From Cyanophyceae cyanobacterium (GTDB lineage Bacteria; Cyanobacteriota; Cyanobacteriia; Cyanobacteriales; JBHJGN01): DNA of 64,000 nucleotides. Location of the stretch: positions 1 to 64,000 of the forward strand of contig JBHJGN010000001.1 in the NCBI GenBank assembly GCA_050331735.1, read 5' to 3'. How positions within the stretch are numbered: the first letter of the stretch is position 1; each line of letters starts with the position of its first letter. A program made the position numbers and the translations under genes. Shown piece after piece: positions 212 to 19,707 of the stretch. A model generated the notes under the pieces. The model was not told the origin of the DNA, searched no databases, and was given only the letters and a program-made list of their open reading frames with translations.

Positions 212-2476
212 CTAACGACTGCCAAACTCTAGTGGACCCGGTTTTCCGATGCCGTAGCCCTGAGCATAATTCACTCCCAGGTGGCGCAGTTTTTCTAGGG
301 TGGCATCGTTCTCTACAAATTCAGCAACCGTTTGCATGCCCATCACCTGACCAACCCGGTTAAAACATTCGACAAGAGCATAGTTGACGCGATCGCTGGT
401 AATGTTTTTGACGAAGCTGCCGTCGATTTTGAGGTAGTCAACGGGGAGATTTTTAAGATACGCCAGCGAACTCATGCCGCTGCCAAAGTCGTCGAGGGCG
501 AAGCGACAGCCAAGCTGCTTCAGTTCGCCGATGAGCTGAGCGGCTCGGGCTAAATTTCCCACCGCCGTTGTTTCGGTAATTTCAAAGCAGATTGCCTGGG
601 GTGGAACTCCATGTTCGGCAAACTGCTCTTTCAGAAAATCGGTAAAGCGATCGCTGTTAACGGTGGTTCCGGAAAGATTGATGGTGTAAACGGTGGAGTC
701 CGACGGGGAAGCTTGATAGTAGCGGCTGTAGCCCTCAAAGAAGGTGCGAATGACCCAGCGATCGATGGTCGTCATCAGGCTATACCGTTCGGCGGCGGGA
801 ATAAACGCCATCGGCGGCACGAGAGCACCCTGTTCGTCGCGCAACCGCAATAAAATTTCGTAGTGGACCGCATCGGCTGTTCCAATCGGAGCAATTTTCT
901 GAGCGTAGAGACAGAAACGATCTTCTTCTAGCGCCGAGTTAATGCGCAAAATCCACTGGCGCTCGCCTCGCTGCCGCACGAGCTGCTCGTCGTTAGAGCG
1001 ATACACCTGAATGCAGTTGCGCCCGCGCTCTTTGGCTCCATAACAGGCGGCATCTGCCGCGCCGAGGATGCTGTTTAAGTTTTGACTGCTGCGGTCGATT
1101 TCGACTAAGCCTAGGCTGGCTCCAATCGTGAAAGATTTGCCGTCCCACACAAAGCGGAACTCCTGGATTTGCCTTTGCAGCGTGTGGGCAATCTGTTCTG
1201 CTTTTTCAATCGGGCAGTTATAGAGCAGCAGACCGAACTCATCGCCTCCTAAACGAGCCAGCAGATCCGTCGAGCGGATTTGTTTTTTCAGCAGGGCGCT
1301 GACCTGACACAGCAGCTCATCGCCAGCGACGTGTCCGCAGGTGTCGTTGACGACCTTAAACTGATCGAGGTCCAGGTAGCAGAGCGCGTGTTGGGTATTG
1401 TGCTGAGCTGAGGCGATCGCCTCAGCGAGATACTGCTTGAATCCGCGTCGGTTAATGAGTTTGGTTAACGTATCGTGAGTGGCCTGCCAGGTAAGCTGAT
1501 GGGCGAGGTTCCGCGAGCGGGTATTGTCTCGCAAGACTAAGACCGTGCCCACCAACACGCCTTGATAACAGCCGATGGGGGTAGCCGAAATATCCACGGC
1601 CTGTTGGCTGCCGTTACGGGCGATGAGCACCAGGCGATCGAAAAGCTTAATCGTCTTTCTCGCCTGCAAAATTCTTTCCACCAAATTTTCGAGCGGCTGC
1701 TCTGTGTCCTCCCGGACGAGTTTGAAGGCTTCTGAAAACGGTTTTCCTGCGGTTTCTGCCGTCGTCCAGCCCGTCAATTGTTCTGCCGCCGGATTAAGAT
1801 ACCTCACTCTACCGCGCCAGTCCGTCGCAATCACGGCATCTCCTAAAGATTGCAGCGTCACCTGAGCCAGCTCTTCGCTTGTCCACAGTTTATCTAGCCG
1901 CTGACGCTCGGCTTGGTAAGTATGCCCCACCGCGTTAGCGAGCATTTCTCCACAGAGGTGCAGCCGACGATGGCTCGTCGTGTGAGCCTGCTCAGCCTCG
2001 AACCCCACCGCTCCCAGCAGATTTTGGTCCACAACAACGGGAAACAGGCTTATTTGATCTTGAGCCGCTAAAGTCCCTCTATTCAGGGCAATTTGTAGCG
2101 CATCAAGCTCGCTCAGATTAGGTAACTCCTCAACATTAACCTGCCCCAATGACGTTCTGCCGCTGGCAGACCATTCTTGGCGCACCTTCCACACCAAAGG
2201 CTTTGCTAAAGAGGTTTGCAGCACAAAAATTCGCTCTAGATGAAAGAACTCTCCCACCGCCTGTAGTGCCGTTCCGATGGCGACACTGGCGTTACCAGAA
2301 TTGATTAAAGTAATCGCTAAACGACAAATAAGCTCTTCAAAGTCAGCCAACTTCTCCAGTTCCAGAGGTTTTTCTCTAGTCAGCCACGGCTTCTCCAAGA
2401 GTGCCTTTTGGGTGTCCAGCAGCGGGAGTTGCTCGGTCAGCAGGCAATTATCAGCGTCTCTCACAATTTTCTTCAT
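212..2476 (-). CDS. PAS-GGDEF-EAL diguanylate cyclase/phosphodiesterase with GAF-like N-terminus
   Basis: PAS (YLNPAAEQLTGW), GGDEF preceded by RSTD I-site, EAL domain (EILLRL, DDFGSG, LKIDGSF). Start set at ATG 2476; ORF track extends to 2518. Confidence 0.9.
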   Translation of the reverse strand: MKKIVRDADNCLLTEQLPLLDTQKALLEKPWLTREKPLELEKLADFEELICRLAITLINSGNASVAIGTALQAVGEFFHLERIFVLQTSLAKPLVWKVRQEWSASGRTSLGQVNVEELPNLSELDALQIALNRGTLAAQDQISLFPVVVDQNLLGAVGFEAEQAHTTSHRRLHLCGEMLANAVGHTYQAERQRLDKLWTSEELAQVTLQSLGDAVIATDWRGRVRYLNPAAEQLTGWTTAETAGKPFSEAFKLVREDTEQPLENLVERILQARKTIKLFDRLVLIARNGSQQAVDISATPIGCYQGVLVGTVLVLRDNTRSRNLAHQLTWQATHDTLTKLINRRGFKQYLAEAIASAQHNTQHALCYLDLDQFKVVNDTCGHVAGDELLCQVSALLKKQIRSTDLLARLGGDEFGLLLYNCPIEKAEQIAHTLQRQIQEFRFVWDGKSFTIGASLGLVEIDRSSQNLNSILGAADAACYGAKERGRNCIQVYRSNDEQLVRQRGERQWILRINSALEEDRFCLYAQKIAPIGTADAVHYEILLRLRDEQGALVPPMAFIPAAERYSLMTTIDRWVIRTFFEGYSRYYQASPSDSTVYTINLSGTTVNSDRFTDFLKEQFAEHGVPPQAICFEITETTAVGNLARAAQLIGELKQLGCRFALDDFGSGMSSLAYLKNLPVDYLKIDGSFVKNITSDRVNYALVECFNRVGQVMGMQTVAEFVENDATLEKLRHLGVNYAQGYGIGKPGPLEFGSR

Positions 2477-2597
2477 AGTCAGCAAACACAACCTTCGCTC
2501 TACCCTAGCTCTGCCCAAAATTCCCCGTCATCACTGTAAACACCGAGATTTCGCGCCTATTTGCCGTCATTCTCACGAAAAGCACTGGAGCGCTATA

Positions 2598-2903
2598 AGC
2601 GCCGTCGGCGCGGGAAAAGGGGAAGGGGGAAATTGTCCCTGACGGGACGGGGAAGGGGGAAAGGGGAAAGGGGAAAGGGAAGCATTGTTTAGCTTCGTTT
2701 TCTATTGTTCGTAACGACAAGCAAAAAGCGGGCAAACTGCCCGCCTTTGCTGTTTATACCATTTACCGCAAGTAGTCAGATAGTTCCTTAAACTAACTAA
2801 GCATTGGAGGTTCAAGGGCAAAGAGCTGCTGTGCTTCCCTTTTTCCCTTGCCCCTTCCCCTTTTCCCCGCAGCGCTAGCTGCTTCCCCCGCGCCGACGGC
2901 GCT
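2598..2903. repeat. Composite intergenic repeat: 17-bp outer inverted repeats, GGGGAAA-type heptamers, mini-hairpin, truncated MITE and a hairpin at 2721-2750
   Basis: AGCGCCGTCGGCGCGGG (2598-2614) and its exact reverse complement (2887-2903); MITE left end TACCATTTA at 2757. Confidence 0.75.
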
Positions 2904-5469
2904 ATAGCCAAGGGCTAACGTCCACCGCCAGCTTTTTCCCTAACCCGAGCAAGATTGGCATCTGAGTGACGTTCCAGCGACAGGTAATTTGGCTATAGCT
3001 GCGGTCTGGGTAGAAACACTGCGGCACGATTTGCTCGTGTAGACATTTGTAGTAAAGTTCTTGCGCTCTATCGAGGGAGAGAGTCAGATGAAGCTGGTTG
3101 CCAACGCTGACTGTTCTTTCTAGGCGAGCGACATCTGCTTCTAGAGTGCTGGGATCGGCGTTGTGCAGCAGTTGCCACAGCGAGCGCAGAATGAGGCGTT
3201 CTAATGTCTTCTTAGCTTGCGGAATTTGTAGCTGACAGCCCAAGCGCTCAGCTTCGATGGCGATCGCCTCTAAATCGGCTAAATGGCGGTCGAGCTTCTG
3301 GGGACTATCGGCGGCTCGTTCGAGCTGCGTGACAATCGTAGAGCAGCGGTGGGATAGCGATACTTCCGCCGCTACCTGGAGCTCTTGAGGAACCGGTAGA
3401 GCATCTCGCCGGAAAGCGACCAGAATGCCGTAGTTATCTCGATACACCTGAGCGTAGAGCTGATCGAGGCGCTTTTTCGTCTTGGTGGTGAGCTGCTGCA
3501 TGATGCGATGCCGTTCTTCGGCAAACAGATGTTGGAGGTTAAAGGCTTGCCCGCCGAACACCTGGGTCATCTTCATAATGGTTTGGGCGGCGCTGGCTTC
3601 GTTGAGCGCTTCAAATAGCTCCTCCTTGACCTGGGTGTACCCCCGCCGTCCGGCGAAGGGCTGAATGCAGCAGTGGAAATCCCAGCCGCCGAGATGCAGC
3701 ACCGCAAACACTAAATGGGTGCTTTCCCACGTAATATCCGAAACCAGCCGCACCTGACCGACGGCCAAATTGAGCGCTCCCATCTGCTGGCGCTGGTAGT
3801 CAAGCTGCTGGACGCTATAGCAGTAAATCTGCTGCTTTTGCGGATAGCTAGTAAACAGCGAACTAATGGCGTAGTGAGCTGCTACCTGCTTAAATCCGAC
3901 CTGGGACGACACCACCAACTGGCGATAAACCTCCGCTCCGTTGCCAAACTGCTCCACATTGCTAGGGGCCAGGGCCAATCGCTCTAAAAACTCCCTTTCA
4001 AGCTGTACTCCCGCTACGTCTCCGGCCAGTTCGAGAGCGCGAGCCGCATAGCGGAGAATCTGGACTCCTTCCGGTCGCGAAATCTCTTCAAAGAACCAGC
4101 CACAACTGGTGTACATCAGCAGAGTATGGCGCTGCATCTCCAGCAGCCGCAGCGCATCCACCTGTTCGGAAGGACTGAGCTGACGGCACTGATGACGGCT
4201 GAGAAAGCGATCAACGGTTTTAGCGGAGCGATCGAGAATGACCTCGATGTACTCCTCCCTTGCCTGCCAGGGATCGCGGAAAAACCGGCGTCCCGTTTCC
4301 TCGTAGATTGGCATTAAGCGATCGCGCAGCCAGTCTAGGACATCCCGCAGCGGTCGTCGCCACTGCTGATGCCATTCCCCACCGCCACCGCAGCCACAGT
4401 GGTCCTGCCAGCGGTCTACGCCGTGGGAGCAACTCCACGCCGTTACTGGCTTCAGCCTCACTTCCCACTGCGGCGGATGCAGGCTCAAGTAGTGGGCAAA
4501 GTTGGTGATCGTCCAGCCAGACTCAGGAAACGTCTGGGTAAAAGCATAGGCTAAACATTTTTCGGTGCCTTTTTTATGATGCCCAAAGGTTTCCCCATCG
4601 GTAGCCACGTTGATTAACTGGGCATTGAGGCGATCTCCACGAACCGCCTGCCCAATGCGTCCAGTAAAGTTGTCCGAACTATTCAATACATCGTTGAAAC
4701 CGAGGTCGCGGGAGATCGGACCATCGTAAAAGAATATATCAATGTAGTCTACTTCGTTGATCGAGCAGCGATAGGGACGAGTGGTATCAATCTGCGATTC
4801 TCCCACTTCCTGCCACTGAGGATCGGGATTGTCTCGGGTTGGGCAAGGGCGACAGCGTTCGGCTTGCGACGGGGCCAAAATGATAAAGCGGATGTCCTGA
4901 GCCACCAGCGCCTCTAAAGTGGCGTAATCCACTGCCGTTTCCGCAAGCCACATGCCTTCGGGATCGCGCCCGAAGCGGGAGCGGAAATCTTCTTTCCCCC
5001 AATGAATTTGGGTATACTTGTCGCGTTCGTTGGCTAGCGGCAAAATAATGTGGTTGTAAACCTGAGCCACGGCGTTGCCGTGACCGTTGAGGCGATCGCT
5101 ACTTTTCCGGTCGGCTTCGATGATGCGCTGATACACTTCAATATCGTAGTTTTCCAGCCACGACATCAGGGTGGGGCCCACGTTAAAGCTTAGATACTCG
5201 AAGTTATTAACGATCCCCACCACCTCACTCTGCTCATTCAAAACACGAGCAAAAGCGTTCGGTCGATAGCATTCGTGATGGATGCGTTCGTTCCAGTCGT
5301 GAAAAGGCGAGGCACTCGGCTGCCGCTCGATGGTGTTGAGATAAGGGTTTTCGCGGGGCGGCTGGTAAAAATGGCCGTGAACCGTGACGTAAACACCAAG
5401 AGCCGTTCTGGAATCGTGGGTTACTTCAGGGGCGACAAGTCCTGAAGCACGCTTGGCAACAGAAGTCAT
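2902..5469 (-). CDS. Glycoside hydrolase family 57 / DUF3536 protein
   Basis: HGHFYQPPRENP, GMWLAETAVD, ATDGETFGHH and YTSCGWFF motifs. Confidence 0.85.
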   Translation of the reverse strand: MTSVAKRASGLVAPEVTHDSRTALGVYVTVHGHFYQPPRENPYLNTIERQPSASPFHDWNERIHHECYRPNAFARVLNEQSEVVGIVNNFEYLSFNVGPTLMSWLENYDIEVYQRIIEADRKSSDRLNGHGNAVAQVYNHIILPLANERDKYTQIHWGKEDFRSRFGRDPEGMWLAETAVDYATLEALVAQDIRFIILAPSQAERCRPCPTRDNPDPQWQEVGESQIDTTRPYRCSINEVDYIDIFFYDGPISRDLGFNDVLNSSDNFTGRIGQAVRGDRLNAQLINVATDGETFGHHKKGTEKCLAYAFTQTFPESGWTITNFAHYLSLHPPQWEVRLKPVTAWSCSHGVDRWQDHCGCGGGGEWHQQWRRPLRDVLDWLRDRLMPIYEETGRRFFRDPWQAREEYIEVILDRSAKTVDRFLSRHQCRQLSPSEQVDALRLLEMQRHTLLMYTSCGWFFEEISRPEGVQILRYAARALELAGDVAGVQLEREFLERLALAPSNVEQFGNGAEVYRQLVVSSQVGFKQVAAHYAISSLFTSYPQKQQIYCYSVQQLDYQRQQMGALNLAVGQVRLVSDITWESTHLVFAVLHLGGWDFHCCIQPFAGRRGYTQVKEELFEALNEASAAQTIMKMTQVFGGQAFNLQHLFAEERHRIMQQLTTKTKKRLDQLYAQVYRDNYGILVAFRRDALPVPQELQVAAEVSLSHRCSTIVTQLERAADSPQKLDRHLADLEAIAIEAERLGCQLQIPQAKKTLERLILRSLWQLLHNADPSTLEADVARLERTVSVGNQLHLTLSLDRAQELYYKCLHEQIVPQCFYPDRSYSQITCRWNVTQMPILLGLGKKLAVDVSPWL

Positions 5470-8119: not shown

Positions 8120-10798
8120 TTAGATAACGGTAAGGTTTTCCTCCATCATTGCCTGTAGCTCAGCCGGAGGAGCCTCTAGGCTAAGATCGGCGTAGTTCGT
8201 TGGGGCTGCTGACGCTGCGGGGTCGCCTAGATCAGGAAAAGCAGCGTCAGGAGCAACTGTTCCGCCCACCAGCAGCACATCATCTTCATCGGCTAATAAA
8301 CTAGATGCTATCGTCAGCGCTGCTGATGTCCCGGATCCGCTCAAGTCTCCGGCGACATTTTCAAAGAAATTGAGTCTGCCGCGATTATTAGTGCCAAGAA
8401 TAGTAAAGTCGCCGCCAACGGCAGTATCTAAATCACCGTCGCCGTCAACATCGGCAAAGCTGGGTGCCGCATAAAAGCCAACGTCGATCGTATCGAAGGG
8501 ATTGCTGCTGCCAGTCACCTCTGTAAAGGTGCCGCCATCATTGCGATAAAAGCGGGTTTCTCCAAAGGCTTCTCCAATCAACGCATCCGCATCGCCATCG
8601 CCGTCAGCGTCAGCAAAACTGGGGAAGCTAAAGAAGCCAGCATCAACTCCGTTGAGGGGGTTGAGCGTCCCTCCCCGTTGCACAAAGCTGCCGTTCTCGT
8701 TGCGTAAGTAACGAATGGTTCCATCAGCTAAGCCCAAGAAAGCATCTTCATCTCCGTCCCCGTCAATGTTGGCAAACGCAATATTGCTATAGGAGCCAAC
8801 ATCGACTCCATTGAAGGGATTATTCGTCCCAACTTGTTCAACAAACTGGCCATTGTCGTTCCGATAAAAATTGATCGTTCCGGCAAACTCTCCGGAAAAC
8901 AAATCTAGATCCCCATCGGTATCGATATCGACGAAGGTGGGAGTGCTGACGAAACCAACATCAATGCCGTTGAAAGGGTTGCCGTTCCCGGCAACTGGGC
9001 TGAAAGTCCCGTTGGTGTTCCGGAAGAACAAAATGGTGCCATTGATCTCGCCTAAGAAAAGATCGAGGTCGCCATCGCGGTCTAGGTCTGCAAAGGTCGG
9101 TACAGGACTGGAAAGAACATCCACGCCATTAAAGGGATTCGCTGCCCCGGTGCGGGCCGCTAAAACAAGCGGGGTATCTTCTAAAAAATTGATGGTGCCG
9201 TCAGCCGCACCGATGAAAGCATCGGCATCTCCATCGGTATCGATATCGACAAAGCCAGGAGAACTAGCATTGCCAACATTAACCGTAGCAAGTGGATTGA
9301 GAGTTCCTGGCTGAAACGCAAACGTGCCTTGGTTGTTGCGATAGAGGAACGTATTACCCGCAGAATTGCCTACATAAGCATCTAAATCGCCATCGCCATC
9401 AGCATCGGCAAAACTGGGAGAACTCCCAAAGCCGACGTTAACGCCAGCAAGCGGGTTTTCTGCTGCCTGGAGAGTAAAGCTGCCGCCGTCGTTTCGGAAG
9501 TAGCTAACGGTCCCGTTCGCTGCGCCAACAAAAACGTCTTCATCTCCATCCGCATCAACATCGAGAAAGGCTGGAGAGCTGTTCGTGCCAACATCGAAGC
9601 CCAGAAAAGGGTTGAACGTGCCGCGCTGCTGCACAAAAGTGCCGCCGTTGTTTTGGAAATAAAATAGGCTGCCAGCCTGGTTGCCAATCGCTACATCCAG
9701 GTCTCCGTCGGCATCAAGGTCGGCAAAAGCGGGAACGCTGTTGATGCCAACATCAATGCCCAGAAAAGGGTTAGACGTGCCGCTCTGCTGAACGAAAGTG
9801 CCGCCGTTGTTTTGGAAATAAAATAGGCTGCCAGCCTGGTTACCGATCGCTACATCCAGGTCTCCGTCATTATCAAGATCGGCAAAAGCCGGAGCGGTGT
9901 TTGCGGGGAAGTTAGCGTTGAGAGGATTCGACGTTCCGGTTCGTTCAACGTAGTTAGCCAGCCTCAGTCGGTTGAGAAAATCAACGCTGCCAAATCCTCT
10001 AGAACCAACAAAACCATCAACATCACCGTCTTCATCCAGGTCGGCAAAGGCAGGAGCGCTAAATGAGCCAAAATCGATGCCTAAAAAAGGATTGAGGGTG
10101 CCTTGTTGCTGCACAAAGGTGCTGCCGTTGTTGCGGAAATAAAACAGGCTCCCAGCCTGGTTACCAATCACCACGTCAACGTTGCCATCGCCATCAATAT
10201 CGACGAAAGCCGGGGCGCTATAGCCGCCAATATCAATGCCTAAAAAAGGATTGAGAGTGCCGCTCTGCTGGACAAAGGTGCCGCCGTCATTGCGAAAATA
10301 AAACAGGCTTCCCAGACGGTTCCCAATGACCGCATCTCCGTCCCCATCCCCGTCAACGTCCGCAAAGAAGGGTAGGCTATTGTCGCCAACATCAATGCCT
10401 AAAAAAGGATTGAGAGTGCCGCTCTGCTGCGCAAAGGTGCCGCCGTTGTTGCGAAAATAAAACAGGCTTCCTAGACGGTTCCCAATGACCGCATCTAGAT
10501 CTCCATCGCCCTCCACATCGACAAAGGCTGGAGCACTATACCCTCCGAGGCTGTCGTTCGGGTTCGTATCAACGTTAACCGCATTGAGAGGATTGAGGTT
10601 TCCGGTTTGCTCAGTAAAGTTGCCCCCATCGTTGCGATAGAAGAAAATTACTCCATCTCGATTGCCAATAAAAGCATCCAGGTCGCCATCGGCATCAACA
10701 TCGATAAAGGCAGGAACGCTATTGTTGTCTACATCGACAACGTTTAGCGGATTGAGGCTACCGCGTTGCTGTAAAAAGGCGAAGGTCAAATTGCTCAT
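8120..10798 (-). CDS. FG-GAP/VCBS repeat protein, probably Ca-binding beta-propeller, 15 repeats
   Basis: 15 DxDxDGDxD-type motifs in ~53-aa repeats; GAGGAG RBS; no obvious signal peptide. Confidence 0.85.
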   Translation of the reverse strand: MSNLTFAFLQQRGSLNPLNVVDVDNNSVPAFIDVDADGDLDAFIGNRDGVIFFYRNDGGNFTEQTGNLNPLNAVNVDTNPNDSLGGYSAPAFVDVEGDGDLDAVIGNRLGSLFYFRNNGGTFAQQSGTLNPFLGIDVGDNSLPFFADVDGDGDGDAVIGNRLGSLFYFRNDGGTFVQQSGTLNPFLGIDIGGYSAPAFVDIDGDGNVDVVIGNQAGSLFYFRNNGSTFVQQQGTLNPFLGIDFGSFSAPAFADLDEDGDVDGFVGSRGFGSVDFLNRLRLANYVERTGTSNPLNANFPANTAPAFADLDNDGDLDVAIGNQAGSLFYFQNNGGTFVQQSGTSNPFLGIDVGINSVPAFADLDADGDLDVAIGNQAGSLFYFQNNGGTFVQQRGTFNPFLGFDVGTNSSPAFLDVDADGDEDVFVGAANGTVSYFRNDGGSFTLQAAENPLAGVNVGFGSSPSFADADGDGDLDAYVGNSAGNTFLYRNNQGTFAFQPGTLNPLATVNVGNASSPGFVDIDTDGDADAFIGAADGTINFLEDTPLVLAARTGAANPFNGVDVLSSPVPTFADLDRDGDLDLFLGEINGTILFFRNTNGTFSPVAGNGNPFNGIDVGFVSTPTFVDIDTDGDLDLFSGEFAGTINFYRNDNGQFVEQVGTNNPFNGVDVGSYSNIAFANIDGDGDEDAFLGLADGTIRYLRNENGSFVQRGGTLNPLNGVDAGFFSFPSFADADGDGDADALIGEAFGETRFYRNDGGTFTEVTGSSNPFDTIDVGFYAAPSFADVDGDGDLDTAVGGDFTILGTNNRGRLNFFENVAGDLSGSGTSAALTIASSLLADEDDVLLVGGTVAPDAAFPDLGDPAASAAPTNYADLSLEAPPAELQAMMEENLTVI

Positions 10799-11224: not shown

Positions 11225-14200
11225 GTGCAACGACCCGATGTATCTTCTCTCTCGCTTGAGGTAAGCTGTTCCCCGTATTTCCTCTCGTGGCTTCAGGAGC
11301 AGCAGCTTAGTCTTGCCCTCACCACCTATCAAACCAATCGCTTGTTTTTGGTAGGAACGAAACCGGATGGGCAGCTTTCTACTTTTGAGCGCTATTTCGA
11401 GCGAGCGATGGGTCTTTACGGGTCTTCAGAACGACTGTATTTGAGTACGCGCTATCAGCTTTGGCAGTTAGATAATGTACTGCAAACGGGCGAGCAGTAT
11501 CGGGGGTACGATAAGCTCTATGTTCCCCGCATTGGTTATACGACCGGAGATCTGAATATTCATGATGTTGCCGTTTCTGGGGAGCGGCAGCAGGTGGTGT
11601 TTGTCAATACGGCCTATAGCTGCTTAGCTACTTTGAGCGATCGCCACAGCTTTACTCCCCTCTGGCAGCCGTCATTTATTTCTAAGCTCGCTCCGGAAGA
11701 TCGCTGCCATCTCAACGGTGTAGCCATGGCCGACGGTAAGCCGCGCTACGTCACCGCCATCAGTCGCTCAGATGTGGCCTCTGGCTGGCGCGAGCGCCGA
11801 CAGGATGGTGGGGTAGTGGTCGATGTTGAAACCAACGAAGTTGTGCTCAGCGGCCTCTCGATGCCCCATTCACCGCGAGTCTACCAAAATCGTCTCTGGC
11901 TGCTCAATTCCGGAACGGGGGAGTTTGGCTACCTCGATGAGCAGTTTGTGCCCGTAGCCTTTTGTCCGGGGTTTCTGCGCGGACTGGCGTTTCACCACAA
12001 CTTTGCCATTGTCGGTCTTTCTAAACCCCGCGATCGCCACTTCACCGGACTGGCTTTGGATGAGCGGCTGGCGGCCAAAGATGCCGTTCCTCGCTGCGGC
12101 TTGATGGTGATTGACTTAACCACCGGCAACATTGCTCACTGGCTCCAGATGGAAGGAGTCGTTAAGGAACTGTTTGATGTCGTGGTGCTACCGGGAGTGC
12201 GGCTGCCCACCGCTTTAGGGTTTAAAACCGATGAAATCTGCCAGGTAGTAACGTTTGAGCAGTCGGGCGGCGGCAGTCAAGTTGTGCCTGCTACGCCCCC
12301 GCCTCCTCAACCCTCCGCCCAGCCTCGGCTGCTGTTTCGTCAGGGCAAAGCGCTCACGGCGCAGGGAAACCTGGCGGCTGCCGTCACCGCCTTTCAAGAG
12401 GCCATTCGCAGCGCCCCAGACTATCTAGCCGCCTATAACCAGCTAGGCAACGTCTTGCAGGCTCAAGGACGGGTGGAAGAGGCGATCGCCGCCTATCAGC
12501 AGGGATTAGCCGTTAATCCTAACGTCGCCGCGCTCCAGTGCAATCTAGGCAACGCCTGGCAGATGCAGGGACAGGTTGAAGAGGCGATCACCGCCTACCA
12601 ACGCGCCATTGAGCTAGACTCTACCTTTGCTCTGGCCTACTTTAATTTAGGTCAACTGCTGGCGGCGCAGCACCAACCAGATGCCGCTGAACACCACTTT
12701 CAGCAAGCCCTCCGCCACCAGCCCCACGCCGCTGAAATTTATCTCCAGTACGGGAATCTGCTTCAGCAGCAGGGGCGCACTGAAGAGGCGATCGCTCAGT
12801 TTCGAGAGGCAATCGGGCGGCAGCCCAGCGCTGAGGCCTACGTGAGTTTAGGGACGGCGCTTCAAAGTCAGCAGGCATTTGAGCTCGCTCAATCTTGCTA
12901 TCAACGGGCGCTCCAGCTTAAGCCTGACCTGGCTGCTGCCCACTTTAAGCTCGGTTTACTGCAAGACTATCAAAACGACCTCGAGGCCGCGAGAGCGAGC
13001 TACGAGCAGGCTCTCTCTCTCTCTCCCCAGGCGACGGATGTTGTGTACTACTTAAGCAATCTTTATTTAAAGCTCGGCGACTGGGAAGACTACGAAGCCC
13101 GAACGCAAGCGCTCATTCAAGCTACCCACACTCATCTGAGCAGCAACGCCTCCACGGCGCTGCCGCCGCTGACGCTCAACTACTTTCCCGTTCCCCTCTC
13201 TCTGCACGCGGCGGTAGCTCGTCAGCGGGCCACCCTGATTACTCGGCTGATGGCGGCGACTCAAGCCAACTGTCTCTTTCAGGATGCCCCCGTTCTCTCA
13301 GATGGCAAAATCCGGTTAGGCTACCTGTCCCCAGATTTTCGCGAACACGCCGTGGGGATTCTTATTGGCGATCTGTTTCCCCACCACGACCGCGATCGCT
13401 TCGAGGTATATGCCTACAGTCTGCTCGCCTCCGATGATGCCATTGCTCAGAAGATTCAAGGCAGATGCGATCGCTTCATCGACCTGTCTAGCCATTCTCC
13501 GGTCGCCGCCGCTCGCCAAATCCATCGCGATTGTGTTCAAATCTTGATCGACTTGGCAGGCTACACGACCTACTCTCGCCCAGAAATCTTGGCTCTTCAG
13601 CCTGCCCCGGTTCAGTGTCTGTATCTGGGCTACCCAGACACGATGGGAGCCGCTTTTGTGCAGTACCTGATCGCCGACCGCTGGGTTGCACCGCCAGAAA
13701 TTGCGAGCACCTACACCGAAAAAGTGATTTACCTTCCCCATCAGTTCATGGCCTCTGAGCTAGAGATAGCTCCCCCGCTGACAAGACCGGAAGTGGGCTT
13801 ACCGCAAGAGGCGTTTGTGTTTTGCTGCTTTAATGCCCATCACAAAATCGAGCCGACCGTCTTTACGAGCTGGATGAACATTCTCAAGCAGGTTCCCGGT
13901 TCAGTGCTGTGGCTCTCCGCCGGAGCAGATCCCCTAATGAACAACCTCCGGACTCAAGCCGAACAGCGCGGAGTAGCCGCCTCTCGCCTGATTTTTGCCC
14001 CCCAGCTACCGCTCCCCCAATACTTAGCTCGCTGTCAACTTGCCGATCTGTTTCTCGATACCTTTTCCTACAGTGCTGGCTCCACTGCTGTTTGTGCCTT
14101 ATCTGCGGGCTTACCCCTGTTGACGAAGTTAGGAGAAACGAACGCCTCGCGCATGGGAGCCAGCATTTGTGCAGCCGCTGGCTTAGAAGCGATGATTTGT

Positions 14201-14416
14201 TCTAGTGTGCCCGAATACGAGCAGCGAGCCATCGAGCTCGCGACCCAGCCCCACGAACTCGCCTTCCTTCGTCACCACCTCCGCGACCAGAAATCGAGTC
14301 TCCCCCTGTTCAACCCCCAGCAGCACGTTCGACACTTAGAAAAGGCGTTTCTAGAAATGTGGCAGCAGTACATCTCAACGAACAATCAACAATCAACCGT
14401 CAACAAAAAACTTTAA
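11225..14416 (+). CDS. TIGR03032/DUF4915 domain + TPR array + GT41 (OGT/SPINDLY-like) glycosyltransferase fusion
   Basis: N-term PEDRCHLNG, GLSMPHSPR, FCPGFLRGL; about 7-8 TPRs; C-term IRLGYLSPDFREHAVG, ILIDLAGYT, APVQ..YLGYPDTMG, FCCFN..HKI, ADLFLDTFSY. Confidence 0.85.
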   Translation: MQRPDVSSLSLEVSCSPYFLSWLQEQQLSLALTTYQTNRLFLVGTKPDGQLSTFERYFERAMGLYGSSERLYLSTRYQLWQLDNVLQTGEQYRGYDKLYVPRIGYTTGDLNIHDVAVSGERQQVVFVNTAYSCLATLSDRHSFTPLWQPSFISKLAPEDRCHLNGVAMADGKPRYVTAISRSDVASGWRERRQDGGVVVDVETNEVVLSGLSMPHSPRVYQNRLWLLNSGTGEFGYLDEQFVPVAFCPGFLRGLAFHHNFAIVGLSKPRDRHFTGLALDERLAAKDAVPRCGLMVIDLTTGNIAHWLQMEGVVKELFDVVVLPGVRLPTALGFKTDEICQVVTFEQSGGGSQVVPATPPPPQPSAQPRLLFRQGKALTAQGNLAAAVTAFQEAIRSAPDYLAAYNQLGNVLQAQGRVEEAIAAYQQGLAVNPNVAALQCNLGNAWQMQGQVEEAITAYQRAIELDSTFALAYFNLGQLLAAQHQPDAAEHHFQQALRHQPHAAEIYLQYGNLLQQQGRTEEAIAQFREAIGRQPSAEAYVSLGTALQSQQAFELAQSCYQRALQLKPDLAAAHFKLGLLQDYQNDLEAARASYEQALSLSPQATDVVYYLSNLYLKLGDWEDYEARTQALIQATHTHLSSNASTALPPLTLNYFPVPLSLHAAVARQRATLITRLMAATQANCLFQDAPVLSDGKIRLGYLSPDFREHAVGILIGDLFPHHDRDRFEVYAYSLLASDDAIAQKIQGRCDRFIDLSSHSPVAAARQIHRDCVQILIDLAGYTTYSRPEILALQPAPVQCLYLGYPDTMGAAFVQYLIADRWVAPPEIASTYTEKVIYLPHQFMASELEIAPPLTRPEVGLPQEAFVFCCFNAHHKIEPTVFTSWMNILKQVPGSVLWLSAGADPLMNNLRTQAEQRGVAASRLIFAPQLPLPQYLARCQLADLFLDTFSYSAGSTAVCALSAGLPLLTKLGETNASRMGASICAAAGLEAMICSSVPEYEQRAIELATQPHELAFLRHHLRDQKSSLPLFNPQQHVRHLEKAFLEMWQQYISTNNQQSTVNKKL

Positions 14417-14428
14417 TCGGAGTAACTT

Positions 14429-15637
14429 TTACGATCCACTGCTCACCGTGATTCGCGGTGCGGCTAAGCGGTGGGTGTAGGTCACCTGGAAGCGTTCTCC
14501 TAATGAGACGGGGAGCGGCTTCCCTAACGCCCAGACCAGGCTATACCAGTGGTTATCGGGCGGAACCTGGGCCGGATGGGTGGTGAGCCAGTTGTTGGGA
14601 CTAAATTCTACGTCAAAGTAGATGAGTAGCCCGTTAATTGTTCCTGCTGTTTGAGCGATCGCGCTGACGGTATGGGAGAACCCGGTGTTGGTGACGGTGG
14701 CAAAATCTACGTCTGCCAGCAGCAGTGGTTCGCTCAACGTCAGCCACTCCTTTGGTGTATCTGCCCGGACATAGAAGGTATGATCCGAGCGAGCCATCGC
14801 CGCCAGCGCTCTAAAGTCAATGCCGTACCAGGACTGCCAGGTTTTTAGCGTTGGCGCTGTCCAGGTTTTTTGGGCGAGTTTCTCTGGCGGAATGGTAATG
14901 GCGAGTCCCATCACCTGTAGTTTCCCCGGTACAAAGCGAGGCTTAGGCTGGAGCAACCGCTTGCGGGCATCGATGGTTACTTCTAGCGCCCGCTCAGATA
15001 GAGGTTCATCGCCGATCATTTCCGTCACTAGAACATCAGCTCGCTCGGGTAAACTGACCTGTGTAGACCATCCCGGCACTAGCGTGATCCGGTCTGCCAA
15101 TCCGTTGACCTCGAACAGAGCTTGAGCCGACTTCCCAATGCTGCTCGCTTCGATGGCATAAACCTGTTTTGCTCCAGCCTGCGCTGCGGCGATCGCCAAT
15201 ACGCCGGTTCCGGTTCCAATATCAACGACCACATCGCCGGGACGAACCACTGCTTGAATACCGGAGATCAATTGAGATGTCCGCTGGCGGTCATTGAGCA
15301 TGGCAATATGAACGGCAGCAGCATCGTAGCCGAGCGGATCGGCTCTCAGCACCGCTGGCAGTTGCCCGGCCTCTTGCAGAATGCCGACCTGATGCAGCCG
15401 CAGAACGGTACTGGTCAAATTCATCCAGTCTTGAACCCCCTGAACCTGAGCTTTGAGCCGCTCCAGTGCCTCAGAAACTGATGTGGGGTAGGCAAACACC
15501 TCCAGCACAGCTAAAGCATGTTGACCACCGCGATAGCTTCTTCCCGACCAGACAATCTGCACCTGGTTGCTAGCATCAATTTCAATGGTCAGGTTAGGCA
15601 CTCGCTGTAGACGAGTATCAATAGAAAAGTTACTCAT
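14429..15637 (-). CDS. PRMT-like SAM-dependent methyltransferase with RRE/winged-helix-like N-terminus (lasso cluster tailoring enzyme)
   Basis: HIAMLNDRQRT, VVDIGTGTG, YAIEAS, double-E loop (TEMIGDEPLSE), NHW loop. Start set at 15637 because the upstream extension is repeat DNA. Confidence 0.8.
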   Translation of the reverse strand: MSNFSIDTRLQRVPNLTIEIDASNQVQIVWSGRSYRGGQHALAVLEVFAYPTSVSEALERLKAQVQGVQDWMNLTSTVLRLHQVGILQEAGQLPAVLRADPLGYDAAAVHIAMLNDRQRTSQLISGIQAVVRPGDVVVDIGTGTGVLAIAAAQAGAKQVYAIEASSIGKSAQALFEVNGLADRITLVPGWSTQVSLPERADVLVTEMIGDEPLSERALEVTIDARKRLLQPKPRFVPGKLQVMGLAITIPPEKLAQKTWTAPTLKTWQSWYGIDFRALAAMARSDHTFYVRADTPKEWLTLSEPLLLADVDFATVTNTGFSHTVSAIAQTAGTINGLLIYFDVEFSPNNWLTTHPAQVPPDNHWYSLVWALGKPLPVSLGERFQVTYTHRLAAPRITVSSGS

Positions 15638-15639
15638 GA

Positions 15640-15865
15640 CACGACATCCCTCCGGGACGGGGAAGCGGTGCGACCCTGCGCCGCCGGAAGGCGCAAGGGA
15701 ACGCGCACCAAGACAGGGAAAATAGTTCCTCCGGAACGGGGAAAGGGGAAACAACTGCCGCCGTAGGAAGCACACGACGGGGAAAGAACACAGGACTAGG
15801 GAATAGGCTGATTTATTCTCCCTTTCCCCCTTCCCCTTTGCCCTTTTCCCGCGCCTGTGGCGCTA
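15640..15865. repeat. Heptamer/mini-hairpin repeat element overlapping the kinase 3' end
   Basis: CCCTCCGGGAC, GTTCCTCCGGAAC (15725), GGGGAAAGAACACAGG, CCCGCGCCTGTGGCGC. Confidence 0.75.
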
Positions 15866-16832
15866 TGCAAGCGGCGCCTATGATCGTCGCGCAGAGCTTG
15901 TCTAGGCGACCAGCGTCCGCGTGGGGAACGAGCTGCTGTACTGGAATCTGCTTGACTAGGCGGCTGAGGTGCTCAAATTCCTGGGCTCGTAGGGAGCGAT
16001 CCAATAAATAATTAACGTAGGTATTTTTGACAAGAGCCATCAGACTCTCTTGCTGAGAGAGCGGCTTGACAAAGGGAGCTTTTGGGTCGAGAGTGCGGGG
16101 ACTAAATAAATAAATTTGAGCGAGCGGCAGGGGATGCTGTTGGAAGCGATAGCCCGCTTGCGTGAGGTCGAGATAGCGCTTGTCCCAGGTAGGATGGGTG
16201 GGCACAATGCGCGGCAGAGCATCAGGAGATTGGTATAAAGCCTTGACCGATTCTGACCAGAGACGAATGCGCGGATAGGCGGGCTGCACTAGAAAGCGAT
16301 CGCCTTCCTCGATTAACGGCACTACATCATCCGATAGCACCGGATAGCCCAGCTTCGCTAAGGCGGCAGCGGTGGTCGATTTGCCAGCCCCCGCCCGACC
16401 AACCAGCGCCACGGCCTGATTGCCAATGGCGATCGCACTGGCATGCAGACAGGTTATTCGACGCAGGCGCAGCCCCCATCCCAATACAGGACCAAGCAAG
16501 TAAGTCGCTGTGTCTTCTAGGGTTAAATCAGCGGGCCAGTTTGCCCAAATCCGCTGGCCCTGAGCATCAATAATAAATTGGGTTCCGTCCCCGTACTGCA
16601 ACCAGAAAGCCTGGTTTTCTAGAGACATCACCTGCACCACCGGTTTTCCTTCGATCTGAGTCGGGCTGCTATACCACGGCGTACGCTCTTTGTCTACAAC
16701 GCCTGCCAGCCACTGAGGTGATTCTCGCAGCCATACCTGAACTCGATTGAACTTTGACCTTACTTGAGGAATCAGCCCAGGAATTGGTTGATTAGTACAC
16801 AAATCGAGTCCGTAGATCCGATAGCAGGGCAT
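15813..16832 (-). CDS. HPr-kinase-like P-loop kinase of the lasso cluster
   Basis: LHASAI, Walker A GRAGAGKSTT, LSDDV, PAYPRIRLW; start overlaps the precursor stop (TGATG). Confidence 0.85.
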   Translation of the reverse strand: MPCYRIYGLDLCTNQPIPGLIPQVRSKFNRVQVWLRESPQWLAGVVDKERTPWYSSPTQIEGKPVVQVMSLENQAFWLQYGDGTQFIIDAQGQRIWANWPADLTLEDTATYLLGPVLGWGLRLRRITCLHASAIAIGNQAVALVGRAGAGKSTTAAALAKLGYPVLSDDVVPLIEEGDRFLVQPAYPRIRLWSESVKALYQSPDALPRIVPTHPTWDKRYLDLTQAGYRFQQHPLPLAQIYLFSPRTLDPKAPFVKPLSQQESLMALVKNTYVNYLLDRSLRAQEFEHLSRLVKQIPVQQLVPHADAGRLDKLCATIIGAACIAPQAREKGKGEGGKGE

Positions 16833-16984
16833 CAGCCCGTTTTAACGACAACAATACCGCGAAGCACCTCCCCGTCGGGAGTACCTTGGTCGCCCAGGGC
16901 CAAGGTTGATTCTGCGACACTCCCGTACACCGAAAATTGAGGGCTGTGATACGGTTGCTTTGACTGTTGTGATGCGCTCATCAT
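16832..16984 (-). CDS. Lasso peptide precursor (50 aa, not in ORF track): MMSASQQSKQPYHSPQFSVYGSVAESTL|ALGDQGTPDGEVLRGIVVVKTG
   Basis: Hand translation. GGAGG RBS at 16990-16994; leader motif YxxPx[L/F]xxxGxxxxxTx; core starts Ala with Asp at position 9. Confidence 0.9.
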   Translation of the reverse strand: MMSASQQSKQPYHSPQFSVYGSVAESTLALGDQGTPDGEVLRGIVVVKTG

Positions 16985-17049
16985 CCTATCCTCCACCAAT
17001 AAAATCTAATCCATACTACCCGACAGAGAAACTTTAGAGCAATATTTCT

Positions 17050-17440
17050 CCGGAAAGGGAAGGCAGCGAAGCTGCGGGGAAAGGGTAAACTGTCGCGTTC
17101 GCGACGGGGAAAGGGAAAGCTGTCCCTCCGGGACGGGGAAAGGGAAAAGAGGAAACTGTCGCGTTCGCGACGGGGAAAGAACACAGGACCAAGGAATAAG
17201 CTGATACCATTTACCGAAAGTAGTCAGATAGTTCCCAAACGAACCAAGAATGGGAGGTTCAAGGGCAAAGAGCTGCTGTGCTTCCCTTTCCCCTTTACCC
17301 CTTCCCCTTTCCCCCAACTCATCAAGTCTCCTATTACTTGTTCTAATTGGTATGAGTTATTCTTCCCTTCCCCCTTCCCCTTTCCCCCGCGCCGACGGCG
17401 CTTCCCTTTTCCCCGCGCCGACAGCGCTTTCCCTTTACCC
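17050..17440. repeat. Heptamer/mini-hairpin repeat array containing a nested MITE
   Basis: GTCGCGTTCGCGAC x2 (17092, 17158), GTCCCTCCGGGAC (17122), CCCGCGCCGAC[GA]GCGCT x2. Confidence 0.8.
17205..17352. mobile_element. 148-bp MITE-like element with 9-bp imperfect TIRs and TGA target duplication
   Basis: TACCATTTA...TAATTGGTA flanked by TGA on both sides; near-identical inverted copy at 29723-29856; partial copy at 2757. Confidence 0.75.
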
Positions 17441-17441
17441 G

Positions 17442-19214
17442 TCACGCACCGGACATTAGCCAGTAGCCTAAACTGACCGGGCGGAGATTTAGCCAAGCTG
17501 TTGAGGGATCTAAAGACTGGGTGGCTGCTGTTAGTAAATTGATATCTACGTAATCTCTAATCGGCAACTGAGCAAGATGTTGCCAGGGGTTTGGCCCCTG
17601 GTGTAAATGCTGAGCTAGAGGAGAGCCGACCAGCGGCGTTTTCGGACGCTGAAGCACTTCAGGCGGTAGCTTCCCCTTCATCGCGACTCGCAAGAGCTGT
17701 TTGCCAACACACCAAGGCAGCGGCGGCAGTGCCAGCAGGTAGCTTAGTAATCGAAGATCTAGAAAAGGAAACCGCACCTCAATCGGACACAGAGAAACTC
17801 CCGGATCTTGAGATTCAAACAGTGCTGACCAAAGCGGCAGAACCATGCCCTGATAGGCTTTGGCTCGCGGCGCATCCGCGACTGGTTTCTGGGTCACCTG
17901 TTGCCATCGCTCAACTAGGTGTAGACGCCGAGCAAAATCGGTCCTCAGCCAGGGGGGATAGGTAGACGCGGCTTTTCTCCTCCGCCACCAGGCATACACC
18001 CCAGTTCCCCAGCGTGGACGCAGTTTGTGAATGAGCAAACAGCGCAGCACATCAACCGCAACTTGACTGGCTGACCCCATCTTCAGCATCTCGGCAACGG
18101 TCGCATAGGCAAAGGCTTCGTCGCCGCCTTCTCCATAGAGAGCCACGCGGCTATAGCGAGCCACCTGCTGAGACTGTTCCCAACCGCCGAGGGCGAGAGG
18201 ACGATGGTAAGGCTCTTGCCCCTTTAATTCCGGTCGTTCCCATCCCTGGTAGAACTGATAGTCGTCGCAACTCCAGTAATGAATAGGAATGCCAAGGTGT
18301 TGGGCAACTAAGCCTGAATAGTAACGCTCTTGACTAGGAATAAGGCGATCGTAAACAGTGGTAAAAGCCTGGATCTCGGTGGAGCCACTCCCCACTTCCA
18401 CAGCCGTGGCGGCGATCGCCGTTGAATCGAGTCCGCCGCTCATGTAGATGGCTACGCGCTCGGTGTTGAGGCGATCGCCTACTGCCACCGCCATGAGTTC
18501 CTGAAACTGATCAATATAGTCTTGCGATCGCCGGTAGCGAATCGGTTCATAAACGGGCAGTTCCCAGTAGCGCTGCTGCTGAATCTCGGTAGTGACGGAG
18601 AGCGTATGGGCTCTGGGTAAGCGCTGAATATCCGCCCAGACGGTTGTTTCAAGATTGTAGTTCATCTCGAAAAGCAGAAAATCGCCGATGGCCTGCTCGT
18701 TAAGCCGATCAGAAATGAGTGGATGTTGACGCAGACAGCTTAAGGTGTTGCTGAAGATGAAGCAGTGACCGACCAGGGCATAATAAAACAGCTTGACCCC
18801 AAAGCGATCGCGGGCGCAAAACAAACGTTGCTGGCTGCTATCCCAAATTGCAAAGGCAAAATCTCCCATGAGGAACTGAACGCAGCCTTCTCCCCAAACG
18901 AGATAGGCTCTCAAGATTAGCTCGCTGTCGGTTTTTCCCAGTTGCTCAACGCCCAGCTTGTCAGCCAGTTCAGCTCGTCCGTCAAGGCGAGCATCGGCAG
19001 TAATCCACGCCTGTCCGTCTACACTGACAGGTTGTTGCTCATTCGCTGACTTCCAAGTAGTGTGCAGCAGCGCGTGTCCTAAACCCACCGCCTGTTCTAG
19101 CCAAATCTCCTGAGCATCCGGCCCTCGAAAAGCCAGCGATTGAGTCAGACGGTGCAGTAGCTCCCGCTCAACAGGAGATCCATTGAGATGAACAATACCG
19201 ACAATGCCACTCAA
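17442..19214 (-). CDS. Lasso peptide cyclase (asparagine synthetase-like C protein)
   Basis: N-terminus MSGIVG lacks the catalytic Cys of AsnB; RGPD, ARDRFGVK, SGGLDS, GEGGDE, RFPFLD; lies between PqqD and precursor; TTG start. Confidence 0.88.
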   Translation of the reverse strand: MSGIVGIVHLNGSPVERELLHRLTQSLAFRGPDAQEIWLEQAVGLGHALLHTTWKSANEQQPVSVDGQAWITADARLDGRAELADKLGVEQLGKTDSELILRAYLVWGEGCVQFLMGDFAFAIWDSSQQRLFCARDRFGVKLFYYALVGHCFIFSNTLSCLRQHPLISDRLNEQAIGDFLLFEMNYNLETTVWADIQRLPRAHTLSVTTEIQQQRYWELPVYEPIRYRRSQDYIDQFQELMAVAVGDRLNTERVAIYMSGGLDSTAIAATAVEVGSGSTEIQAFTTVYDRLIPSQERYYSGLVAQHLGIPIHYWSCDDYQFYQGWERPELKGQEPYHRPLALGGWEQSQQVARYSRVALYGEGGDEAFAYATVAEMLKMGSASQVAVDVLRCLLIHKLRPRWGTGVYAWWRRRKAASTYPPWLRTDFARRLHLVERWQQVTQKPVADAPRAKAYQGMVLPLWSALFESQDPGVSLCPIEVRFPFLDLRLLSYLLALPPLPWCVGKQLLRVAMKGKLPPEVLQRPKTPLVGSPLAQHLHQGPNPWQHLAQLPIRDYVDINLLTAATQSLDPSTAWLNLRPVSLGYWLMSGA

Positions 19215-19223
19215 AACCTTTCC

Positions 19224-19514
19224 TCAACGCTCAGATGAAGTTCCTGATTGCTCCTCAGTAACGCTCAGTAACCCGTGGTCTACGAGCTTTTGAATCAACT
19301 GCTGTAGGTCTCGACGAAGCTGTTCTGGTTCTACATCGTACTCTGCTAGCAAGGTTTTATAGGCCGCTTCCACTTCTGTTTTTTCAACCAGGGTGGTCCA
19401 CATGCGAGTTCCCACATCGTCTAACCCAAAATACTGCTCGCTAGCCAGATTCAGCAGCACCGATTCACCACCAACATCTTGAATCAAAACCTCTTGCGGC
19501 ACAGAAACTTTCAT
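19224..19514 (-). CDS. PqqD-family RiPP recognition element (lasso B1/E protein)
   Basis: GESVLLNL..EQYFGLDDVGTRMW...EYDVEPEQLRRDL..L...GLL; GAGGAG RBS. Confidence 0.92.
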   Translation of the reverse strand: MKVSVPQEVLIQDVGGESVLLNLASEQYFGLDDVGTRMWTTLVEKTEVEAAYKTLLAEYDVEPEQLRRDLQQLIQKLVDHGLLSVTEEQSGTSSER

Positions 19515-19550
19515 GACCACTCCTCAGTTAACTCGGTAGATTCTATATTA

Positions 19551-19707
19551 AGTCCCTCCGGGACGGGGAAAGGGGAAACTGTTCCTCCGGAACGGGTCAA
19601 GAACACAGGGTTAAGAAACAAGCTGTATAGTTCATCCCCTTCCCCCTTCCCCTTTGTCCTTTTCCCCGCGCCTGTGGCGCTTCCCTTTTCCCGAGCGCGG
19701 AAGCTGC
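19551..19707. repeat. Heptamer/mini-hairpin repeat element
   Basis: GTCCCTCCGGGAC (19552), GTTCCTCCGGAAC (19581), AAGAACACAGG, CCCGCGCCTGTGGCGC. Confidence 0.75.

Follow-up and report, generated by a model that had tools for sequence, protein, structure and literature searches.

Results

A lasso-peptide locus encodes a PRMT-like enzyme with an added N-terminal domain

The stretch of DNA analysed here, which we call the window, comprises 64,000 nucleotides from a cyanobacterium (Cyanophyceae cyanobacterium, contig JBHJGN010000001.1, positions 1 to 64,000), whose genome is designated G000. Positions 14429..15637 on the minus strand of the window encode a protein of 402 amino acids followed by a stop codon, here named MT for methyltransferase, which was characterized through its open reading frame (ORF) and translation, Pfam, matches in the Protein Data Bank (PDB), an AlphaFold2 (AF2) model and Foldseek. 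MT is a bacterial protein related to the protein arginine methyltransferases (PRMTs) of eukaryotes, fused to a small domain of the leader-binding type and encoded in a lasso-peptide cluster. Lasso peptides belong to the peptides that are made on the ribosome and modified after translation (RiPPs), and the added domain has the fold of a RiPP recognition element (RRE), so that the gene is described below as encoding an RRE-PRMT fusion. The relatives support the assigned start at 15637, which 30 full-length homologues share; the ORF can be read upstream as far as a GTG at 15775, an extension that the relatives do not back.

The catalytic core is of the complete PRMT type

Residues 104-402 of MT (14432..15328, minus strand) form a catalytic core with an alpha-Y helix motif, a Rossmann domain that binds S-adenosylmethionine (SAM), a double-E loop (E206/E215), a helical arm and a beta-barrel that carries an NHW loop. 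Arginine N-methylation is a hallmark protein mark of eukaryotes, and in PRMTs the double-E and related residues hold the guanidinium group. An earlier note, made from the letters of the window, had read the PRMT motifs HxxMLxDxxRT, motif I, E-x8-E and the THW loop in this gene, and all of them are present in the 402-residue translation, at HIAMLNDRQRT (110-120), VVDIGTGTGVL (137-147), TEMIGDEPLSE (205-215), TTHP (352-355) and NHW (362-364). HMMER alignment to PDB sequences placed E206 and E215, which make up the E-x8-E pair, opposite both glutamates of the CARM1 loop 'SEPMGYMLFNE', and N362-H363-W364 opposite the CARM1 THW loop. Y104, H110, M113, L114, D116, R119 and T120 aligned to the PRMT6 helix 'Y..VHEEMIADRVRT', while motif I and the post-I glutamate E163 ('VYAIEAS') aligned to both CARM1 and PRMT6. 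Among 31 full-length homologues, M113, L114, D116, R119, T120, the GTGTG of motif I and E163 are invariant and E206 and E215 nearly so, as is the tryptophan of the NHW loop among the relatives. In a wider set of 74 family cores, both double-E positions are glutamate in 69; the exceptions are L022_2200, L051, two L086 copies and L021_936, the L numbers denoting loci in which relatives were found.

The beta-barrel that had been expected at the C-terminus was recovered by sequence and by structure. Pfam PRMT_C covers residues 261-386 with 48.5 bits against a cut-off of 27, and the best PDB sequence matches found with phmmer are CARM1 (E 2.5e-28) and PRMT6 (E 7e-26), with PRMT7, PRMT8, PRMT1, PRMT3 and PRMT2 also matched. 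An AF2 model built from 31 homologues (mean predicted local distance difference test, pLDDT, 88.8) has helices 251-282, taken as the dimerisation arm, inserted into the barrel, and Foldseek related it to PRMT6, TbPRMT7, PRMT3, CARM1 and PRMT1 at E values of about 1e-23, with target-normalised template modelling (TM) scores of 0.72-0.83. These matches lie far beyond chance, and the core is a complete one of the PRMT type.

The Pfam family PrmA also matches MT (45.3 bits), over residues 120-208 and thus the Rossmann part only. That MT might be PrmA itself, the ribosomal protein L11 methyltransferase, was ruled out, as MT reaches 38.9 bits with the L11 equivalog model TIGR00406, whose cut-off is 183.15, and the automatic L11-methyltransferase label is for this reason wrong. 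The earlier note had foreseen such labels, and homologues do bear the source name 'L11 methyltransferase (PrmA)'.

The N-terminal domain is modelled as an RRE fold

Residues 1-95 (15353..15637, minus strand) make up a winged-helix domain of four short strands, three helices and one strand. Folded alone with AF2, it gave a mean pLDDT of 84.9, and the best Foldseek matches of this model are mostly RiPP leader-binding modules, namely TigE, PqqD, LynD, TruD, TbiB1, lasso B1, ThcOx, MccB, McbBCD and PbtF-RRE, with the TbiB1 and lasso B1 structures being those that contain the leader. Target-normalised TM scores were 0.61-0.68 for PqqD, TbiB1, lasso B1 and PbtF-RRE, and the top match, TigE, had a query-normalised TM score of 0.67. 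In an all-against-all structural alignment (VIA), four matches reached a Z score of at least 8 (MccB 10.2, TigE 9.8, MibB 9.0, MadB 8.3), with a few unrelated winged helices interspersed in the list. When an alignment of N-terminal domains was compared by hhalign with 14 PqqD proteins of these clusters, one collinear match of 87 columns, spanning the whole domain, was obtained (probability 41.9%, E 2.7e-4). As modelled, the domain has the RRE fold of strands and a three-helix winged helix. The earlier note had called it a PqqD/winged-helix RRE: the fold comparisons and the hhalign match to PqqD bear this out, while at the level of sequence profiles the domain is not assigned to the Pfam family PqqD (PF05402).

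MT is the last gene of an operon-like lasso cluster

MT closes an operon-like row on the minus strand that contains, in order, genes for PqqD, lasso cyclase, precursor, HprK-like kinase and MT. The first of these (19224..19520) encodes a stand-alone PqqD-family RRE of 98 amino acids, the lasso B1 protein, with 64 bits to PF05402 against a cut-off of 23.4 and 56 bits to NF033536, below the cut-off of 80. It is followed by an asparagine-synthetase-like lasso cyclase of 590 amino acids (17442..19214; Asn_synthase E 1.9e-30, GATase_7), whose best NCBIfam match, NF033535, falls short of the cut-off (366 bits against 525). The precursor gene (16832..16984) encodes 50 amino acids from an ATG at 16984 that follows GGAGGA; it matches NF033528 (lasso_cyano) at E 3.3e-4, below the cut-off, and contains the leader motif. 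The full ORF, of 55 codons, covers 16832-16999 and begins with a TTG at 16999. The leader of the precursor, YHSPQFSVYGSVAESTL, conforms to the pattern YxxPxLxxxGxxxxxTx, with threonine at -2, which we take to be the lasso leader pattern and used to identify precursors throughout. The predicted core peptide (16835-16900) has 22 amino acids, an aspartate at position 9, within the range of 7-9 in which lasso precursors have Asp/Glu, a single arginine (R14, codon 16859-16861) that is followed by glycine, and the ending KTG.

The HprK-related kinase (15813..16832) has 339 amino acids and matches Hpr_kinase_C (E 7.3e-5) and TIGR04352 (E 3.7e-11), both below cut-off. The TGA of the precursor gene overlaps the ATG of the kinase gene (TGATG, window 16830-16834), an arrangement that suggests translational coupling of the precursor and its kinase. 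The only PF13471 match of the genome is a B2-type protein of 147 amino acids encoded on the minus strand at the start of another contig, beside leuA (G000:C80:363-803, locus L107).

The fusion family and its genomic neighbourhoods

A word-indexed search returned 1171 relatives of MT, of which the full-length ones, of about 400 amino acids, are 46-55% identical to it. The few that carry organism names are labelled Kouleothrix, Actinomycetota, Thermodesulfobacteriota and Thermomicrobiales, and the source annotations of relatives read L11 methyltransferase, hypothetical or PRMT1. A profile search with the N-terminal domain found 478 representative clusters at 50% identity, 288 of them at E <= 1e-10. 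In all of the best 150 of these 478 the domain lies at the N-terminus; 95 of the 150 are at least 380 amino acids long, and 82 of these 95 pass a regular expression for the E-x8-E loop. Twenty-four of the same 150 are shorter than 130 amino acids, and since several break off within the first motifs of the PRMT core, these short entries look like fragments. In a sample of 401 genomes from the window's phylum, the full-length form was found in G000 only, from which we take the gene to be mobile; in a sample of 401 genomes from the phylum of genome G419, no full-length form was found at E <= 1e-60, and a single-sequence scan of genome contigs returned only distant, core-only relatives.

The lasso context that the earlier note had assigned to MT is real in the window and recurs around its relatives. 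We collected 79 metagenome loci of relatives and called lasso genes with hidden Markov models (HMMs) made from the window's proteins; 19 of the 79 contain at least one lasso gene. By single-sequence search, the N-terminal domain could be detected in 40 loci, 13 of which had lasso genes; of the 16 among these 40 that extend for 3 kb or more on one side, 7 had them. A kinase homologue lies beside MT in 14 of the 79 loci, one of which has two, and these amount to 14 of the 19 lasso-positive loci. L022, L053 and L062 repeat the order cyclase-precursor-kinase-MT, and L026 has the order MT-cyclase-precursor-kinase.

In a quick maximum-likelihood tree of the 74 family cores, with support given by the Shimodaira-Hasegawa-like approximate likelihood-ratio test (SH-aLRT), MT of the window falls in a group of 15 rows (SH-aLRT 84), of which six have lasso genes, seven are too short to tell and two have none. 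The two last, L038 and L048, both with long flanks, belong to a subgroup without the N-terminal domain, which comprises L038, L041, L045, L048, L049 and L055 (SH-aLRT 100) and looks as if it had lost the RRE along with the lasso context. A Pfam scan was made of 13 relatives' loci without lasso matches. L025 has NTP_transf_5, an ABC (ATP-binding cassette) ATPase and a glycosyltransferase as neighbours, the neighbours in L028, L029, L052, L054 and L059 are unrelated or without assignment, and those in the remaining seven loci are clearly unrelated.

Locus L022 contains two tandem MT genes with the N-terminal domain after the kinase gene (2200-3450 and 3486-4721). The second copy is canonical; the first has aspartate for E206 and arginine for W364 and looks degenerate or re-tooled, which indicates that degenerate copies exist in the family.

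A second PRMT-fold enzyme in the genome

G000 encodes a second PRMT-fold protein, of 373 amino acids, at the very end of a different contig (G000:C20:109410-110528; L106:8911-10029, minus strand), where its gene adjoins those of an ABC exporter and an NTP_transf_5 nucleotidyltransferase (L106:7052-8839, L106:5724-6944). Compared with MT of the window, it is 29% identical, with Asp/Gly at the positions of E206/E215 and LIY where MT has NHW. Its identity to the product of L021:936-1937 is 54%; that gene stands in the middle of a kinase-MT2-MT1 row, in which MT1 is a methyltransferase with the N-terminal domain. This second enzyme probably belongs to the same lasso pathway, although its gene lies outside the window; no sequence overlap was found between the end of contig C20 and the start of C80, where the B2-type gene lies. 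Two types of PRMT-fold protein serve these lasso pathways, and the type found in the window has kept the arginine pocket. Because the second copy has Asp/Gly for E206/E215 and LIY for NHW, the PRMT fold appears to have taken on other roles in lasso pathways as well.

Arginine in the cognate core peptides

A leader-motif search of the loci yielded nine precursors beside MT genes with the N-terminal domain, in the window, L022, L023, L026, L027, L042, L053, L062 and L074. Arginine occurs in all nine predicted cores, exactly once in seven of them. Glycine and arginine are the only residues that all nine have in common, with lysine, serine and threonine each present in seven. At an arginine frequency of 4-7%, the chance of finding arginine in nine of nine cores is 0.01-0.12; as a hint at an arginine target, the pattern is suggestive, not decisive. 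Among the 12 arginines of the nine cores, three are followed by glycine and two others are preceded by it, and the Arg-then-Gly of L027 has glycine on both sides. The earlier note had stressed a core with one arginine in an R-G dipeptide, and this description fits the window, where R14 precedes glycine; conservation of the RG context did not extend across the nine cognate cores. A C-terminal serine is found in the L026 core only, among these nine kinase-associated cores.

Other genes and repeats near the cluster

All three intergenic spacers of the cluster (15640-15870, 17060-17440 and 19530-19700) hold copies of a small dispersed repeat, which consists of short GC hairpins and a 38-nt unit whose 22-nt core occurs 19 times in the genome at up to 2 mismatches. 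The repeat may be an element resembling a miniature inverted-repeat transposable element (MITE) or a shared regulatory cassette. Convergent with the MT gene, and ending 13 bases away from it, lies a plus-strand gene (11225-14416) for a 1063-residue protein that joins a TIGR03032/DUF4915 domain, tetratricopeptide (TPR) repeats and a GT41 (O-GlcNAc-transferase-like) domain. Beyond it, on the minus strand (8120-10798), a protein of 892 amino acids is made of repeats of about 60 residues rich in 'FxDxDGDGDxDxxxG', which by eye resemble FG-GAP/VCBS repeats.

Discussion

A leader-guided arginine methyltransferase as the favoured reading

We give an even chance to the reading that MT, guided by the leader, N-methylates the guanidino group of R14 in the precursor. 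As far as sequence and predicted structure reach, the analysis supports this reading, which the earlier note had put forward; neither of the computational outcomes that the note had named as contrary, an N-terminal domain unlike an RRE or a missing PRMT beta-barrel, was obtained. In its favour stand the complete PRMT core with its guanidinium-holding residues, the RRE fold and N-terminal position of the added domain, the recurring lasso context and the arginine in all nine cognate cores. The N-terminal domain, by virtue of its RRE fold, would bind the leader of the precursor, whose gene lies two genes upstream, and this binding would hold the core peptide at the PRMT-type active site. The PRMT core would use SAM to methylate a guanidino nitrogen of R14 once or twice. 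Methylation would take place on the linear precursor, ahead of leader removal and ring closure, as is reported for several other lasso tailoring enzymes in passages of a 2021 review (PMC8498205).

A prediction of the complex of MT, precursor and SAM is a weak sign of precursor binding. Its score was 0.41 (runs 0.58, 0.41 and 0.40), while the best of three controls scored 0.00; at least 24% of contacts agree between runs and the partner pLDDT is at least 30. Of 157 solved complexes 116 reach the mark, as do 2 of 215 mismatched pairs, but at a score of 0.60 or less it is reached by only 18 of the 157 and by both of the passing mismatches. The weakness of the prediction also counts against the favoured reading.

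Several further points weigh against the favoured reading. The Foldseek E values of the N-terminal domain ranged from 5e-3 to 0.15, with no match reaching 1e-3. In VIA, the remaining RiPP modules scored below 8 (ThcOx 7.8; NisB, PbtF-RRE and TbtB 7.6 each; TbiB1 7.3; CteB 7.2; lasso B1 and PqqD 6.8 each; LynD 6.1), and Z scores of 7-8 are common for unrelated small domains according to the tool's own note, so that the weight of this result lies on the consistency of the list and on the four matches of at least 8. No Pfam family, PqqD PF05402 included, matched residues 1-100, and a profile of 27 N-terminal domains gave nothing meaningful against PDB sequences (best E 0.19). In the catalytic core, H363 of the NHW loop is replaced by serine, asparagine or cysteine in many relatives. 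Within the window, no gene was found for the leader peptidase B2, a transglutaminase-like protein. The nine precursors were picked with the leader pattern given above and the boundaries of their cores are predicted; the sequences around arginine in these cores, moreover, vary (LRG, KRG, GRG, GRS, GRD, CRV, PRV, KRA and FRA), which makes the argument from the 'RG' dipeptide a weak one. Seven relatives of about 400 amino acids that are 33-45% identical to MT (L032, L039, L047, L069, L068, L070 and L073) have unrelated neighbours and no lasso gene within 6 kb, and because these distant relatives lie among unrelated genes, the fusion family is wider than lasso biosynthesis. Finally, we infer the chemistry itself, together with leader binding, the precursor as the substrate, arginine as the acceptor and the order of the steps.

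Other explanations of the locus

MT may instead be an enzyme that the RRE brings to the lasso precursor in order to modify something other than arginine, namely a lysine amine, a carboxylate (of aspartate, glutamate or the C-terminus) or a phosphate added by the kinase, an explanation that we regard as unlikely. In its favour, the kinase is constantly present, accompanying MT in 14 of the 19 metagenome loci that have lasso genes, and lysine is found in seven of the nine cores; the changing context of the arginines and the second PRMT-fold copy of G000, which lacks the arginine-binding residues, point the same way, as does the known lasso methyltransferase described in passages of the 2021 review, which targets the C-terminal carboxyl (PMC8498205). 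Set against these are the presence of arginine in nine of nine cores, compared with seven of nine for each of lysine, serine and threonine, and the acidic double-E pocket kept in 69 of the 74 cores, which, to judge from the PRMT mechanism, should suit a cationic guanidinium and repel a carboxylate or a phosphate.

A different explanation leaves the precursor out altogether: MT might methylate free L-arginine, in the manner of SznE, or some cellular protein, with the lasso neighbourhood being incidental or regulatory. The seven more distant relatives without surrounding lasso genes would fit this picture, as would the restriction of the full-length form to G000 among the sampled genomes of its phylum, and a bacterial enzyme that methylates free arginine, SznE, is known from what is stated in part of a 2025 preprint (PMC12637814). 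This explanation has to contend with the fused domain, whose fold is that of peptide-leader binders, with the recurrence of the order cyclase-precursor-kinase-MT in unrelated metagenome contigs, with the finding that all nearest relatives with informative flanks sit in lasso clusters and, more weakly, with the score of 0.41 for the predicted complex against 0.00 for its best control. We consider it as improbable as a different acceptor on the precursor. Far less probable than either is a catalytically dead MT, or one that acts as a mere scaffold or chaperone for the precursor; an altered copy does exist in the tandem pair of L022, where aspartate replaces E206 and arginine replaces W364, but the copy in the window retains all SAM-binding and catalytic motifs.

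Implications

What is new here is a variant that combines a known PRMT, a known RRE-fused tailoring enzyme and a known lasso cluster, and not a new category. Full-text searches, which covered few of the subscription journals, turned up nothing published on PRMT-like enzymes in lasso or other RiPP pathways, and the searched full texts contained no report of arginine N-methylation as a lasso or RiPP tailoring step or of a PRMT fused to a leader-binding domain. Somewhat short of an even chance is the stronger proposal that MT is the first protein arginine methyltransferase dedicated to a RiPP, an enzyme with an intact arginine pocket that is aimed at one peptide by its fused leader-binding domain and would give rise to a methyl-arginine lasso peptide, alongside a peptide kinase and a second PRMT-fold enzyme re-tooled for another acceptor.

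If this proposal is right, bacterial natural-product pathways have seen a diversification of the PRMT fold in which the fusion by itself accounts for at least 478 sequence clusters. The family is large and at present mislabelled as L11 methyltransferase. The lasso peptide would gain a new modification, an arginine that is bulkier, less basic and resistant to trypsin, possibly at the steric plug. MT would furthermore offer a compact, leader-addressable PRMT for peptide engineering, and a system of one enzyme and one peptide in which to study how a PRMT chooses among mono-, asymmetric and symmetric dimethylation.

Comparison with known systems

The eukaryotic PRMTs (CARM1/PRMT4, PRMT6, PRMT3, PRMT1 and TbPRMT7) are like MT across the whole catalytic core. 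Unlike them, MT is bacterial, is 23-29% identical in sequence, has an N-terminal RRE-fold domain, is encoded in a RiPP cluster and is presumed to act on a single peptide instead of many proteins; the modules appended to eukaryotic PRMTs are SH3, zinc-finger, PH and TIM-barrel domains. PrmA shares with MT a Rossmann SAM domain, but is without the PRMT beta-barrel. The second PRMT-fold protein of G000 shares the fold, but has lost the double-E and THW residues that are intact in MT.

With regard to its N-terminal part, MT is comparable to the RRE-containing RiPP enzymes and to the lasso B1 proteins (TbiB1, PDB 5v1v; 6jx3; PqqD, 5sxy), which have the same winged-helix fold and occur in the same kind of cluster. 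It differs from these other RREs in that Pfam PqqD does not detect it and in that a PRMT core as the fusion partner was found in no paper searched. The cluster in the window is also distinguished by possessing a separate canonical PqqD in addition to the RRE-fold domain of MT itself.

To our knowledge, no RRE has been reported for SznE. Among bacterial enzymes, SznE of the streptozotocin pathway is, by analogy of reaction, the nearest precedent for guanidino methylation: a passage of the 2025 preprint names it as an arginine methyltransferase of the streptozotocin cluster, where guanidino N-methylation takes place within a natural-product pathway, on free arginine (PMC12637814).

The lasso tailoring reactions listed in the relevant passages of the 2021 review are C-terminal O-methylation, phosphorylation of serine by HPr-kinase homologues, glycosylation, citrullination, acetylation, hydroxylation and epimerisation, and the HPr-kinase-type lasso kinases that have been characterised phosphorylate a C-terminal serine (PMC8498205). 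StspM and the C-terminal O-methyltransferase of the lassomycin type resemble the proposed MT in being SAM-dependent, encoded in lasso clusters and active on the linear precursor, as the same passages describe them (PMC8498205). They methylate the C-terminal carboxyl, whereas MT has a pocket of the arginine type, a distinction that is drawn from published descriptions of these enzymes.

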